DNA of 64,000 nucleotides from Candidatus Rokuibacteriota bacterium (lineage in GTDB: Bacteria > Methylomirabilota > Methylomirabilia > Rokubacteriales > CSP1-6), in assembly GCA_003220615.1 (NCBI GenBank), contig QHTB01000155.1:39615-103614 (forward strand), written 5' to 3'. The notes below the pieces were generated by a model, which saw only the letters and a list, made by a program, of their open reading frames with translations, was not told the origin of the DNA and made no database searches. The position numbers were made by a program, and so were the translations under genes. Of the stretch, positions 76 through 21,671 are shown piece by piece (the first letter of the stretch is position 1; each line of letters starts with the position of its first letter).

Positions 76-738
76 CTAGGCGACCGGCAGCGTGAGCCGC
101 GCCTCGATCCCGCCGTCTGGCGGAGTCGAGAGCGCCAGCGTGCCGCCGTGCAGGCGGGCGATCCGTTCCACGGTGACGAGTCCGAGCCCCGCGCGGCCCG
201 GCTTCTTGGACGCCGCCAGCCGAATGGCGACGCGCGGGTTGCGGATCCCGACGCCCCAGTCACGGACGACGAGCGCGACTCGCTCATCACCGGTCTCCGC
301 GCCAACGGTCGGGCTCGGGCGACCGGGGCCGGCGTCTTCGGTGGCCTCGAGCGCATTGCGGATCAGGTGCGACGCCGCGACGCTGAGCAGCTCGGCGTCT
401 CCACGGACGCGCGGCCACTCGCTCCCGACCACGCTCACGCCAGCCGTTCCCAGCCGGCGCACCTCCTGCTCGACGACCGACCGCAGGTCCACCATCGCCA
501 TCTCGTTGCGGTCCAGCGCGGCCACGGAGAACGCAGCGGGCAGCATGCGGGCCAGACGCACGAGCTCCTGGCCGATCGTCTCCAGGCTCTGCTTGGCGAG
601 CGGATCGCTCACACCGGCGCGCTTGACGACTTCGAGATGCATCACCGCCGAGTTCAGCGGGCCACGCAGGTCGTGCAACAGGCGCTCGAGATCGGCCGGC
701 AAGTCACGACGGCGTGCGTCCTCCAGCGGCGGCGCCAT
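76..738 (-). CDS. Histidine kinase (HisKA + HATPase), no sensor domain
   Basis: H-box LLHDLRGPL, N-box LIRNALEA, G1 DWGVGI, G2 GLGL; start overlaps stop of the response regulator. Confidence 0.85.
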   Translation of the reverse strand: MAPPLEDARRRDLPADLERLLHDLRGPLNSAVMHLEVVKRAGVSDPLAKQSLETIGQELVRLARMLPAAFSVAALDRNEMAMVDLRSVVEQEVRRLGTAGVSVVGSEWPRVRGDAELLSVAASHLIRNALEATEDAGPGRPSPTVGAETGDERVALVVRDWGVGIRNPRVAIRLAASKKPGRAGLGLVTVERIARLHGGTLALSTPPDGGIEARLTLPVA

Positions 739-2141
739 CAGGTGATGCGCGCTGACTTGACCGCCTGAATGCCGTACTTCGCGAGCTTGTTGTAGAGCGT
801 CTTGAGGCTGATGCCGAGGAGGGCGGCCGCGCGCCGCTTGTCCTGGTTGGTGTCCTCGAGCGCACGCAGGATCAGCTCTCGCTCCATCTCGCGGATGGGC
901 GTCACCGAGCCCTTGGCGGGCGCCCGTGTCGGCTCCGCCGTGTGCAGCACGTTCTCGGGCAGGTGCTCGAGGGCGATGAGGCCGCTGCCCGAGAGGACGA
1001 CGGCGCGCTGGATCACGTTCCGGAGCTCACGCACGTTGCCGGGCCAGCCGTAGCGATCGAGGGCCTTCTCGGCCTCGGGGCCGATGCCGCGCACCTGCCG
1101 GCTGTCCTGGCGATTGAACTCGTCGACGAAGGAGCGGCTGAGGACCGGGATGTCCTCTTTACGCTCGCGCAGCGTGGGCAGCCGGATGGCGAAGACGTTG
1201 AGACGGTAGAAGAGGTCCTCGCGGAGCTGGCCCGCGGTCATGGCGTCCTGCGGCACGCGGTTGGTGGCCGCGATGACCCGGACGTCGACCTGGATCTCCT
1301 GCTTGCCGCCACCCACGCGCCGGAAGGTGCCCTCCTGGAGCACCCGGAGCAGCTTGGCCTGGGTGGAGTTGTCCATCTCCGCGATCTCGTCCAGGAACAG
1401 CGTGCCGCCGTCGGCCAGCTCGAAGCATCCGAGGCGCCGCTCGGTGGCGCCGGTGAAGGCGCCGCGCTCGTGGCCGAATAGCTCGCTCTCGATCAACGTC
1501 TCCGGAATCGCCGCGCAGTTGATGGCGACGAACGCTCGGTTGCGCCGGTTCGAGAGATCGTGGATCGTGCGGGCGACCAGCTCCTTACCGGTGCCGCTCT
1601 CTCCGAAGACGAGGACGGGCGCCGTGCTGGTCGCCGCCAGCTCGATCCAGCGGTAGACCTCGTGCATGCCCTTCGCCTGTCCGACGAGCTGGCCGAAGCT
1701 CCCCTTCTGGCGGAGCTGATGGCGCAGGAAGTTGACCTCGCGCGACAGCGACTCTTGCTCGATGGACTTCTCGAGGAGGACCTGCAGCCGCGTCGCATCG
1801 ACCGGCTTGGTGAGATAGTCGAACGCGCCGTGCCGCATCGCCTCCACGGCGCTCTCGACGGTTGCGTGCCCGGTCACGAGCAGGACCGCCGGCGGCCGGC
1901 CCGTCTCCTTCAGCTTCTGCAGCAGGGTGAGACCGTCCATCTCGGGGAGCACGAGGTCGGTCACCACCACGGCCGGGCGATGCGTCTCGACCAGCTCGAG
2001 CGCCTCTTCACCCGACGAGGCGGTCTCCACCTCGTAGCCCCACTGTCCGACCATCCGGGCCAGACCTTCCCGCTCGGTCGGCTCGTCGTCGACGACGAGG
2101 ACCTTTCCACCTTTCGTCTGATCGCGTCGTACCGGGCTCAC
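738..2141 (-). CDS. Sigma54-dependent response regulator (NtrC/AtoC family: REC, AAA+, Fis HTH)
   Basis: VLVVDDE receiver, GESGTGKE Walker A, GAFTGA loop, [28 protein letters not shown]; start GTG 2141 chosen after AGAGG (ORF open to 2180). Confidence 0.95.
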
Positions 2142-2245
2142 CGTCGCAGTCGCCTCTTGGTTTTCTCGTCGCGTCCACACGCGGGGCGGGAGTCGAGGGA
2201 AATCGTCTCCCGCCCCGTCAGAGTACCCGCAGCGAATCGGGTTTT

Positions 2246-2563
2246 CTAGTTCTTCTGGACTTGCAGGTTGTTGACGACGTTGCGGACACCCTTTGCCTCG
2301 CGGGCGATCTGCTCCGCGCGCGCCCGCTGCTCGGCGCTCTCGACCGTCCCGTTAAGGTAAACAGTGCCGTTGTTGGTGTCAACGTTCACACGGGTCAGGT
2401 TCGACGCCTTGTCGGCGACCAGCTTCGACTTGACCGCCGTGGTGATGCTCGCGTCGTCGATGTTCGTGCCGGCGGACTTGCCGGTCATGCTCCGGCAGCC
2501 GCTCAGTACCGCGAGGACTGCCACCATCACGACCAGCGTTTTCATCAGCCGTCCCAGCCTCAT
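2246..2563 (-). CDS. BON-domain (OsmY-like) lipoprotein
   Basis: Lipobox VLSGC; DDASITTAVKSKL...VNVDTNNGTVYLNG...GVRNVVNNLQV; AGGAGG RBS. Confidence 0.9.
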   Translation of the reverse strand: MRLGRLMKTLVVMVAVLAVLSGCRSMTGKSAGTNIDDASITTAVKSKLVADKASNLTRVNVDTNNGTVYLNGTVESAEQRARAEQIAREAKGVRNVVNNLQVQKN

Positions 2564-2583
2564 GTCCGTTCCTCCTGTCGCTC

Positions 2584-2934
2584 TCAGGCTGCGCGACGTA
2601 TCGTTTCCAGCTCCGCCTGGCACGCCACGCAACGTGTGGCGAAGGGCAGCACACGGAGCCGCGCTTCGGCGATCTCTTCGCCGCAATCGCGGCAGACGCC
2701 GTAGCGTCCGGCTTCGATGTCTTCGAGGGCGGAGTTGACCTGTTGCAGTTCACGGGCCCGGCGGTCGACCACGGCCGCCGCTATCTCGTCATCGTGTGTG
2801 AGCGAGGCGCTCCCGTACGGATCCTTGGCGAGCTCCCGAAAGTGGTCCGTATCACGATTGGAATCCATGCTCGAGTGGATCGCGACCTTCAACGCCGATC
2901 GCTTGCGCTCCAGCTCCCGCTTGATGCTCAGCAT
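2584..2934 (-). CDS. TraR/DksA C4-type zinc-finger protein
   Basis: GRYGVCRDCGEEI...RL...P...RCVACQ; AAGGAGG RBS before ATG 2934. Confidence 0.9.
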   Translation of the reverse strand: MLSIKRELERKRSALKVAIHSSMDSNRDTDHFRELAKDPYGSASLTHDDEIAAAVVDRRARELQQVNSALEDIEAGRYGVCRDCGEEIAEARLRVLPFATRCVACQAELETIRRAA

Positions 2935-19803: not shown

Positions 19804-19845
19804 CGCGCGCGCAGAAAGAAGAAGAAAGCTACCCATCGCCACGGT

Positions 19846-19861
19846 TGGCACGCCATTCGCT
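19846..19861 (+). promoter_or_regulatory. Sigma54 promoter for the small Cys/His protein
   Basis: TGGCACGCCATTCGCT; predicted +1 about 3 nt before ATG 19875. Confidence 0.72.
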
Positions 19862-19874
19862 AATTCCATCGAGC

Positions 19875-20075
19875 ATGAGTTTGTGTGCTTCGTGCGGCCT
19901 GCAACTGACGGGAGACGCCGCGCTCTGCCCGCATCATCACTGCGTGTACGGCGACGACTGGGCGGTGGCGAACCGCATCATGTGTGACTTCTTCCATCGC
20001 GGAAAGATTCCGCCGCGGCTGACGCAGACGGAACGCGACGACGAGTTCTGGGCGCACACGGGCGAAGCCGCCTGA
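19875..20075 (+). CDS. Small Cys/His-rich putative metal-binding protein (66 aa)
   Basis: MSLCASCG...LCPHHHC...WAVANRIMCDFFHRG. Confidence 0.7.
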   Translation: MSLCASCGLQLTGDAALCPHHHCVYGDDWAVANRIMCDFFHRGKIPPRLTQTERDDEFWAHTGEAA

Positions 20076-20078
20076 CGA

Positions 20079-21671
20079 TCAGCCCGCGACGGCTTCAGGC
20101 GGCGCCGGCGCTTCCGGCGCGTAGAACGACGACTCGCGCACGCCCCGCGCGCACTGCCGGGTGAACTCGATGAGGTGGTGACTCACCACCGCGGTGTTGA
20201 TGAGGGCCTCGAGCTCACCCGCCCTCAGCATCGGCAGGGCCGCCTTCCAGAACGTGCGCCGATAGTCACCGCGGATCCCCACCCGCCAGAACAGCCGGCC
20301 GAGGATCGCGAGCCCCATGAGGACGTTCCGCCACGACGCGCGCTCGCGGTTCGTCGGAAACGGGAGCCGGTTGGAAAATGTGTGCTCCACGTTGTAGACA
20401 TAGCGCTCGTAGACGGCGGCCGGATCGTAGGCCGTGGTGATGCACCGCAGCCACATGTCCAGCACGCTCTCGTACGGCATGCGGAACGCGATGTTGGATT
20501 CCCGTCCCTCGTCGGGCAAGAGGCGACCCTCGGCTTCCAGCCGCCGCCAGAGCGGCGTGCGCGGGAGCGCGTAGAGGATGTTGATGGTGAGGATCGGGAT
20601 CGCGGAGGCCTGCACGAAGTCGATGATGCGATCGGTAGTGTCGGGCGTGTCGGTGTCGAGGCCGATGATGATGCCGGAGACGACCTCGAAGCCGTAGCGG
20701 TTGAGCGTGCGCACGGCCTCCAGCAGTGGCATGCGCAGGTTCTGATCCTTCGACATGAAGCGCAGGGCCTGGGGCTCTGGCGTCTCGATGCCGCAGAAGA
20801 TCGTGACGAACCCCGCCTCCCGCATGAGCGCCAGCACCCGCTCGTTCTTGGCGATGTTGAGCGTCGCCTCGCAGGCGAACCGCAACGGATACCGGTGCGC
20901 GCGCTGCCATTCGATCAGGTGGGGCAGGAGCTCGAGCGTCGCCTTCTGGTTGCCGATGAAGTTGTCGTCGACGAAGTAGACGCTGGTCGCTCCTCCGGCC
21001 AGGATCTGGTCGAGCTCGGCCAGCACCTGGGCCGGCGTCTTGAGCCGCGGGTTCTTGCCATAGAGCGCGGGGATGTCGCAGAACTCGCACGAGTACGGGC
21101 AGCCGCTCGAGAACTGGATGTTGGCGAGGAAGTACCGCCGGATCGGCGTCAGGTGATAGGCGGGTGCCGGGAAGTCGGACAGGGGCAGGCGCGTGGCCGT
21201 CTCGAAGCGTAGCGGGCGGCGCGGCCGCCCCCTATGGGTGTCGAGGTACTCGATGATGCGGTCGGTGGCATCGCCGAGCTCGCCGACGTGCAGGAGGTCG
21301 GCCTCCGGATAGTACTCGGGACAGCTCGAGACCGAGGGCCCGCCGAGGACGACCACGCGCCCGTGACGGTGCGCGCGCGCGACGATGTCGTTGATGAAGG
21401 CGCGCTGCACGTGCATCCCCGACACCAGCACCGCGTCCGCCCATTGAAAATCCGCGTCGCTGGCGGCGCCGGCGTTCTCGTCGACGAAGCGGACGTCCCA
21501 CGTCTCCGGGAGGTAGCTGGCCACGACGAGCAGGCCCTGCGGCGGCATGAACGCGCGGACACGGCCGCCAAAAAACGGATATGCATACTGAAAGGTGCCG
21601 AACGACGGAGCGTACCGCGGTGAAACGCAGAGGACCCGCCGCCGTCGTGTGGGGAGATAGCGGGTACGCAT
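20079..21671 (-). CDS. hpnP: B12-binding radical SAM methylase, HpnP (hopanoid C-2 methylase)-like
   Basis: [55 protein letters not shown]; resemblance to HpnP from recall. Confidence 0.72.

Follow-up and report, generated by a model that had tools for sequence, protein, structure and literature searches.

The first 20 kb of a 64,000-nucleotide stretch of DNA from a Candidatus Rokuibacteriota bacterium, together with the 2 kb before it, would form a conserved Rokubacteria island that expresses envelope and general-stress-type genes from sigma-54 (RpoN) promoters. In our preferred reading, to which we give a probability of roughly 60%, an NtrC-family activator encoded in this island acts on four or five of the promoters via a candidate enhancer dyad, TGTAA-N3-TTACA, and the others are controlled from elsewhere. 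The stretch (the window) is C87:39615-103614 of a source genome of 5.86 Mb, 68% G+C and 233 contigs; C-numbers denote contigs, G-numbers genomes (G000 being the source genome) and L-numbers loci. Genes were called with a codon-usage caller trained on the source genome and named from Pfam and NCBIfam. Rokubacteria are abundant uncultured soil bacteria whose regulatory biology is absent from the literature searched: full-text searches on sigma-54/RpoN in Rokubacteria or sigma54 in Methylomirabilota returned nothing relevant, and within that literature the initial annotation was right to call the architecture undescribed for this lineage.

That annotation listed 12 GG-N10-GC elements, nine at 2.9-19.9 kb and three outliers, and all 12 lie where it placed them (+/-1 nt), in non-coding DNA and facing a gene start within 300 nt. 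Their position weight matrix (PWM) scores are 10.7-16.2. Most were said to read (T/C)GGCA...TGC, and the first block is indeed present in 10 and the TGC end in 11 of the 12. An A or T directly follows the GC in 11/12 window elements and in 97/146 (66%) genome sites, in a genome of 68% G+C; this feature belongs to the known consensus and was absent from the search pattern. The predicted promoters are:

2989-3004, minus strand: sigma-54 promoter of the dksA-BON-activator-kinase operon
3212-3227, plus strand: sigma-54 promoter of the M48 peptidase gene (pattern and PWM match, ortholog conservation)
6210-6225, minus strand: sigma-54 promoter of the YqjE-LigD operon
11904-11919, plus strand: sigma-54 promoter of the genes for a GFO oxidoreductase and a peptidoglycan-binding protein (weak but conserved)
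14733-14748, plus strand, and 14745-14760, minus strand: overlapping, divergent sigma-54 promoter pair of the genes for a glycogen-debranching-enzyme-like protein (GDE) and a GT4 glycosyltransferase
17874-17889, minus strand: sigma-54 promoter of the M50 peptidase gene (ATG 16 nt past the GC)
19516-19531, minus strand: sigma-54 promoter of the YmgE gene
19846-19861, plus strand: sigma-54 promoter of a Cys-rich open reading frame (ORF) of 66 amino acids (non-canonical -12 block TTCGC; ATG 14 nt past the GC)
28879-28894, minus strand: sigma-54 promoter of a nucleotidyltransferase-like gene and a receiver-only regulator
46124-46139, plus strand: sigma-54 promoter of a receiver-only response regulator
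55501-55516, minus strand: sigma-54 promoter of a class IV aminotransferase and a luciferase-like monooxygenase

The last three had been counted into a stress regulon, which their genes (nucleotidyltransferase-like, receiver-only regulator, aminotransferase) do not bear out.

The checks that had been proposed for these sites included a genome-wide PWM enrichment test, conservation upstream of orthologs and a search for sigma-factor genes. Loose matches are of no use here: TGGCAC-N5-TTGC with up to two mismatches occurs 47 times in the window against an expectation of 51.9, and 78 of 100 shuffles gave at least as many. The analysis was therefore confined to strong matches in promoter position. 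Across the genome, where non-coding DNA has a 9.3% share, exact copies of TGGCAC-N5-TTGC number 29 in non-coding against 1 in coding DNA, one-mismatch copies 153 against 86, and PWM matches of at least 13 bits 183 against 44; strong matches are about 40-fold enriched in non-coding DNA. The nine sites in 17 kb (within the first 20 kb) are the densest sigma-54 cluster of the genome, the runner-up being on C185; when sites were scattered at random over intergenic DNA 2000 times, 0.55% of the trials gave a cluster this dense. As for sigma genes, rpoN is present and passes NCBIfam TIGR02395 (457 vs 277 bits), and an RpoS-like group-2 sigma at C145:11932-12849 scores 305.9 bits against the TIGR02394 cut-off of 378.7, which does not certify it as RpoS. 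There are 28 PF00158 matches to sigma-54 activators genome-wide, 23 of them strong.

The island's activator has orthologs of 82-97% identity on 34 public contigs, and conservation was followed through these. Almost all of the contigs carry the label Candidatus Rokubacteria, Rokuibacteriota or Methylomirabilota; below them come matches from other phyla with at most 50% identity. Further loci were taken from 40 relatives' genomes, and L087 and L107 (from two unpublished genomes) were excluded from counts. When a site of at least 10 bits upstream of the gene is counted in the 34 orthologous loci, it is found at the first genes of the predicted units: dksA-like 23/23, M48 13/13 (and in a further 11/22 loci where the caller split the gene), YqjE-like 15/18 and GFO 6/7. 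Internal genes lack it almost entirely (activator 1/33, kinase 0/34, LigD 0/19), as do the mutagenesis genes (dnaE2 0/19, imuB 0/12, imuA 0/9). The -24 and -12 blocks are conserved across relatives and the spacers vary. In the loci from the 40 relatives, the YmgE promoter is kept in 7/7 and that of the 66-residue ORF in 6/7, where its unusual -12 block, TTCGC(T/A), is likewise kept in 6/7 genera. The overlapping GT4/GDE pair is kept in all three loci with divergent genes (L114-L116, three other genera); where the two genes are co-directional, a site lies upstream of GT4 in 3/6 loci. Enrichment, rpoN and conservation together support the view that the elements are real sigma-54 promoters.

The position of start codons bears on the same point. 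Among the 183 non-coding sites of at least 13 bits, an ATG opening an ORF of at least 60 amino acids was counted by its offset from the GC: 31 sites have one 13-17 nt past the GC, 9 have one at offsets 0-12, and further on there are about 2.3 per offset (Poisson p = 1.6e-5 against a conservative expectation of 13). Window promoters of this kind are 6210 (15 nt), 14733, 14745 (17), 17874 (16) and 19846 (14), and in YqjE orthologs the ATG lies 13-16 nt past the GC in 15/17 promoters, with an intervening sequence that is not conserved. The phasing also gives independent support that the motif fixes the start site, and it implies that about one-sixth of the promoters may yield leaderless or near-leaderless mRNAs. 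At 14733-14760, two divergent sigma-54 promoters are packed into 28 nt with a common -12 GC, inside a 32-nt gap between the ATGs.

The activator and its kinase close the first unit, as the initial annotation had described, with GAFTGA at residue 240 of the regulator:

2584-2934, minus strand: DksA/TraR-family zinc-finger protein, the operon's first gene (Pfam; below NCBIfam cut-offs)
2246-2563, minus strand: BON-domain lipoprotein, OsmY-like, with a lipobox-like LSGC (Pfam)
738-2180, minus strand: NtrC-family response regulator and sigma-54 activator (Pfam PF00072, PF00158, PF25601, PF02954)
76-738, minus strand: histidine kinase of 220 amino acids with HisKA and HATPase domains only and no sensor or membrane domain (Pfam)

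The activator has a receiver, an AAA+ domain and a C-terminal Fis-type helix-turn-helix, and it falls below every NCBIfam equivalog cut-off (AtoC 451/714, NtrC 421/559, ZraR 397/760, PspF 282/444). A kinase ortholog adjoins it in 34/34 loci. The operon has its own sigma-54 promoter and, as set out below, a conserved enhancer dyad; positive autoregulation, which the initial annotation had suggested, is therefore likely.

The dyad was seen in an alignment of the M48/dksA intergenic region (27 loci and the window), which holds one conserved block between the two promoters: an AT-rich TTGAAA-N4-TTC followed by GGTGTAA-N3-TTACACC. In the window the central dyad is at 3120-3135, and a second copy, resembling TGAAA-N3-TTTCA, is centred on 3151. 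Two places in the window carry the motif beside a promoter:

3120-3161, no strand: shared candidate enhancer region between the divergent promoters (27-locus alignment; PWM 17.2)
19544-19556, no strand: YmgE dyad with one mismatch to TGTAA-N3-TTACA, 12 nt upstream of the -24 element

The dyad is conserved at a second place, on the far side of the kinase gene, where the sigma-54 promoter of a nucleotidyltransferase-like/M50-like operon follows about 85 nt downstream. Here, at C87:37861, is the sole exact copy of the dyad in the 5.86-Mb genome. It stands beside the kinase, 1.75 kb before the window start, and precedes the sigma-54 site C87:37956 by 89 nt; 29 nt beyond the dyad comes a TGAAG-N3-TTTCA copy. 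Four of the 13 best dyad-PWM matches genome-wide are in the island. The orthologous loci, 579 kb in all, contain 62 matches with up to three mismatches, and 57 of these fall within 300 nt of a sigma-54 site. Counted per ortholog as a PWM match of at least 12 bits within 300 nt upstream, the dyad is present at the transferase-like operon in 24/25 loci, at dksA in 22/23, at M48 in 12/13 and at YmgE in 5/7, and it is found at none of the GT4 (0/6), GDE (0/3), cardiolipin-synthase-like (Cls; 0/5) and GFO (0/4) loci.

Dyad and activator also tend to occur together. The exact dyad is found in 7/8 relatives with an activator ortholog of at least 83% identity versus 11/31 others, a comparison that excludes the unpublished G010 and G023 and in which the relatives are not independent; the reversed control pattern gave 10 vs 27 occurrences. 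In G000, G001, G017, G018, G020 and G022 the exact dyad lies 1.6-3.2 kb from the activator gene. Other searches for enhancers gave little. Exact 5-N(1-8)-5 palindromes sought de novo upstream of 216 sigma-54 sites revealed no common enhancer and one duplicated region: C44:7.6-8.2 kb and C160:0.2-1.2 kb hold almost the same divergent sigma-54 promoters and several palindromes, either a repeat or one locus assembled twice. Matches near the window promoters to GCGCA-N5-TGCGC, the dyad of the regulator NmpR, have two mismatches and are meaningless in G+C-rich DNA. The window's GT4/GDE repeat GAGTCG-N9-CGACTC is not preserved in either L115 or L116, and Tyr codons account for it.

For the YqjE-LigD operon, a candidate site is embedded in the coding sequence of the neighbouring dnaE2 gene:

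6340-6352, minus strand: half-dyad GGGAATCTTACAA, candidate embedded enhancer, within the dnaE2 3' end

Lying in the last dnaE2 codons, it precedes the -24 element of the YqjE promoter by about 120 nt. The codons involved, GGA ATC TTA CAA (G-I-L-Q), are kept in 18/19 relatives (the misaligned L033 row was excluded), and in the source genome TTA accounts for 0.3% of Leu, CAA for 8% of Gln and GGA for 8% of Gly codons, which gives a joint probability of about 1.6e-5. L017, the single relative with common codons there, is also without a YqjE promoter. We read the half-site as being under selection at the DNA level, with every synonymous position apparently set to match the dyad.

These observations suggest the following wiring. 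The sensor-less kinase and the NtrC-family activator would be made from their own sigma-54 promoter as part of a dksA-like/BON/activator/kinase operon, and the phosphorylated activator would most likely bind TGTAA-N3-TTACA, usually as a pair of copies spaced by about 29 bp. Bound there, it would activate three transcription units: its own operon, in a positive feedback loop, the divergently transcribed gene of the M48 protease, and the transferase-like/M50-like operon, which lies just outside the window and converges on the kinase. It would probably also drive YmgE through the promoter-adjacent dyad and YqjE-LigD through the half-site in dnaE2. The GFO, GT4, GDE, M50 and 66-residue ORF promoters, although also real on this reading, would depend on a different one among the roughly 23 activators or on an unrecognised site. 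The sites, their enrichment, their conservation and their association with the dyad are observed; which protein binds the dyad, its control by phosphorylation and the signal are what we infer.

Several findings weigh against this reading. The central dyad is degenerate, with a spacer 3 nt longer than that of the relatives, in the window itself and in L003, and the dyad counts lean toward the motif, the PWM having been trained on copies adjoining sigma-54 sites. Only about 12-19 nt separate the YmgE dyad from the -24 element, where enhancers are not usually found; the YqjE half-site, at about 9 bits, falls short of the threshold of 12, and in L016 and L030 it is kept with no YqjE promoter detected. 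The exact dyad is also held by those 11 of 31 non-independent relatives that have no close activator ortholog. The link between activator and dyad is guilt by position, and the gene calls come from our own crude caller.

Three other explanations were considered. The first denies that the GG-N10-GC elements are promoters: in G+C-rich DNA they could arise by chance or be palindromes recognised by other factors. In its favour are the loose pattern, which is at chance level in the window, and the pair 14733/14745, which makes an inverted repeat GGCAC...GTGCC. We regard this as close to refuted: it does not account for the roughly 40-fold non-coding enrichment, the A/T after the GC, conservation upstream of first genes only and despite varying spacers, the ATGs phased 13-17 nt past the GC, or the rpoN and activator genes of the same genome. 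A different doubt concerns the dyad, which might be the site of some other protein, such as a repressor, a nucleoid protein or another activator, with the local activator's enhancer elsewhere or nonexistent. The YmgE dyad is placed as is typical of repressors or co-regulators, the exact dyads in relatives without a close ortholog fit this view too, and the second, AT-rich copy resembles an IHF-type bend site. Even so, we consider it quite improbable, as copies that are paired about 29 bp apart and placed 60-130 nt ahead of the -24 element are textbook geometry for an NtrC-family enhancer, and the dyad stands on both sides of the activator operon in nearly all orthologous loci. Paired dyads are also known for NmpR, according to PMC11841059.

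It is somewhat easier to imagine a single regulon in which the local activator drives all nine or ten island promoters, using at GFO, GT4, GDE, M50 and the 66-residue ORF sites too weak or too different for the PWM, distant looping enhancers, or activation from solution. The promoters are clustered beyond chance and stay together across genera, and several have no room for an intergenic enhancer (the 32-nt GT4/GDE gap being an example), so that some unconventional activation is needed anyway. However, no dyad with a PWM score of even 6 lies within 300 nt upstream of GT4 (0/6), GDE (0/3) and most GFO and Cls genes, the GT4/GDE alignment has no conserved DNA-level element, and there are about 23 activators in the genome to choose from. 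In distant relatives, GT4-GDE adjoins a different activator, 47% identical to the local one. We therefore find one regulon under one activator unlikely and keep to the reading with four or five targets. As a player in the source genome, the activator that adjoins GT4-GDE in L117 and L118 was discarded, since it has no clear ortholog there (best 52%). The initial annotation's proposal that the stress genes are wired to RpoN is thus upheld as regards the sigma-54 promoters and not as regards one regulon under one activator, the dyad being at 4-5 of 10 promoters.

BON/OsmY, YqjE-type, YmgE/Transgly_assoc, CsbD, hibernation-factor and PRC-barrel proteins are typical members of RpoS, SigB and EcfG regulons. 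In the source genome, seven classical stress families are over-represented in predicted sigma-54 units, with 8/23 genes vs 359/5887 genes genome-wide, including the sole CsbD, the sole hibernation factor and 2/3 PRC-barrel genes; for HSP20 the count is 0/2 and for Usp 1/6. The PRC and HPF families were picked post hoc, after they had been seen in the C185 cluster; the enrichment weakens to 5/19 without them (counted by hand) and to 3/17 with the island also excluded. That cluster, C185:3441-16517 (L215), is the second-densest for sigma-54 sites. It stands before genes for a PRC-barrel protein, the ribosome hibernation factor (PF02482), DUF3108 and small proteins of unknown kind, and the same contig has activators close by. 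The CsbD gene (C87:106860-107063) lies 3.2 kb past the window end behind a sigma-54 site of 19.2 bits, among the best.

Sigma-54 use extends well beyond stress genes. Sites of at least 12.5 bits precede 152 first genes, and in the 150 of these that were run through Pfam 169 families turned up, the commonest being receiver domains (9), pilins or pseudopilins (5) and gas-vesicle proteins (4), and the units also include transporters; judged from these predicted units, sigma-54 is a broad workhorse in this genome. Given this breadth and the RpoS-like group-2 sigma, sigma-54 is therefore not a simple replacement of a sigma-70-type stress sigma factor. A wider idea, which we offer tentatively and hold to be somewhat doubtful, is that a large part of general-stress and dormancy control in Rokubacteriales (OsmY/BON, YqjE, YmgE, CsbD, hibernation factor, PRC-barrel, lipid/envelope remodelling and PrimPol repair) may have moved from a sigma-70-type sigma to sigma-54. 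Several enhancer-binding proteins would then be in charge, the mRNAs would often be leaderless (ATG 13-17 nt past the -12 GC), some enhancers would be embedded in adjacent genes by means of codons that are otherwise avoided, and some divergent promoters would overlap to the point of having one -12 GC in common.

RNA is available from four soil metatranscriptomes of one study, which hold 9-11% of sampled words. Assembled contigs cover kinase-activator-BON-dksA (e.g. 1458-2873, 425-1495 and 2284-2964), M48 from 3251 and 3268, and YmgE up to 19482, 19488 and 19489, and those at the operon, M48 and YmgE end 12-16 nt inside the predicted starts. Such contigs show neither transcript starts nor strand and their depth cannot rank genes, and the uncovered stretches (most of 4.7-18.7 kb: dnaE2-imuB, YqjE-LigD, GT4, GDE and M50) are not readable as silence. 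The contigs are weakly compatible with the predicted promoters.

The remaining genes of the island are:

3262-4200, plus strand: M48 (HtpX-type) peptidase (Pfam)
4326-4538, minus strand: tail-anchored protein of 70 amino acids, ElaB-like only by eye (C-terminal tail anchor), with no Pfam match
4559-5488, minus strand: LigD primase-polymerase (PrimPol) domain protein (Pfam, 271 bits)
5534-5797, minus strand: small membrane protein of no family (translation, Pfam scan)
5800-6195, minus strand: YqjE-like membrane protein, PF07332 (Pfam, 39.8 bits vs gathering 28.4)
6250-11742, minus strand: dnaE2, imuB and an imuA-like gene (Pfam)
11957-13036, plus strand: GFO/IDH/MocA oxidoreductase (Pfam)
13116-13628, plus strand: peptidoglycan-binding protein, downstream of the GFO gene with the common promoter 11904
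13685-14728, minus strand: GT4 glycosyltransferase (Pfam), ATG 17 nt past the -12 GC
14761-16944, plus strand: GDE, a glycogen-debranching-enzyme-like glycoside hydrolase (Pfam)
17102-17858, minus strand: M50 peptidase (Pfam), with an apparent 1-nt frameshift near 17840 vs the L114 ortholog (tblastn)
17936-19180, plus strand: PLD-family, cardiolipin-synthase-like protein (Cls; Pfam)
19214-19468, minus strand: YmgE/Transglycosylase-associated membrane protein (Pfam)
19552-19743, minus strand: membrane protein of 63 amino acids (gene caller)
19875-20075, plus strand: Cys-rich ORF of 66 amino acids (gene caller)

The gene names given initially stand, by Pfam, for BON, YqjE, YmgE and the cardiolipin-synthase-like protein. 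The name ElaB/YqjD for 4326-4538 was rejected, with no Pfam match at E<=0.05 and DUF883 (PF05957) not found genome-wide, and the supposed non-homologous end-joining function comes down to PrimPol, the sole LigD domain in its ORF, which has two paralogs elsewhere in the genome. The imuA-like/imuB/dnaE2 mutagenesis cassette sits mid-island without its own sigma-54 site and is syntenic in relatives. In the M50 gene, 17835-17858 reads MMVLGR in one frame and AFGIPIRV in another where the L114 ortholog has MIALGRAFGIP, the result of an assembly error or of a genuine lesion. A separate sigma-54 site precedes the Cls-like gene in 8/25 relatives' loci, and none lies upstream of it in the window itself. 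Upstream of the 63-residue membrane-protein gene, 19744-19800 has a conserved, -10-like TAnnnT and no sigma-54 site, and this gene probably uses a sigma-70-type promoter. An Rfam search of the 64-kb window gave zero matches.

The island can be compared with several known systems. In ZraSR/zraP of E. coli and Salmonella (PMC4987338), an NtrC-family regulator and a kinase form an operon with a sigma-54 promoter; a second such promoter, pointing the other way, serves an envelope-stress protein, and the activator works on the two of them. The dksA-BON-activator-kinase operon divergent from M48, with common central dyads, is like it; the differences are that the island's activator is not an ortholog (397 vs 760 bits), its kinase lacks a periplasmic sensor, ZraP is missing, the dyad is another one and there are more target promoters, spread over about 22 kb. 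NmpR of the Myxococcus xanthus NmpRSTU system is NtrC-like and receives its phosphate from a HisKA-CA-only kinase; it regulates its own sigma-54 promoter and attaches to paired dyads ahead of several operons (PMC11841059). The island's sensor-less kinase and paired dyads recall NmpS/NmpR, whose dyad (GCGCA-N5-TGCGC) and gene content are unlike the island's. The phage-shock system of PspF is described in PMC4987338 as a sigma-54-dependent response to cell-envelope damage; PspF lacks a receiver domain and is restrained by PspA, and the island's activator scores 282 against the PspF cut-off of 444. The RpoS, SigB and EcfG regulons resemble the island in gene content, whereas its promoters are of the -24/-12 and not the -35/-10 type and require ATP-dependent activators.

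In these terms, the core of the island, as predicted, is an ordinary autoregulated two-component sigma-54 switch of the NtrC type with divergent targets, and its TGTAA-N3-TTACA dyad is likely previously undescribed, with four or five likely targets. The island offers a concrete wiring diagram (promoters, candidate enhancer dyad, activator and kinase) that bears on envelope and DNA protection under stress. Added to this familiar core are three unusual design features: sigma-54 promoters for putatively leaderless mRNAs, a rare-codon half-site in dnaE2, and divergent promoters within 28 nt.

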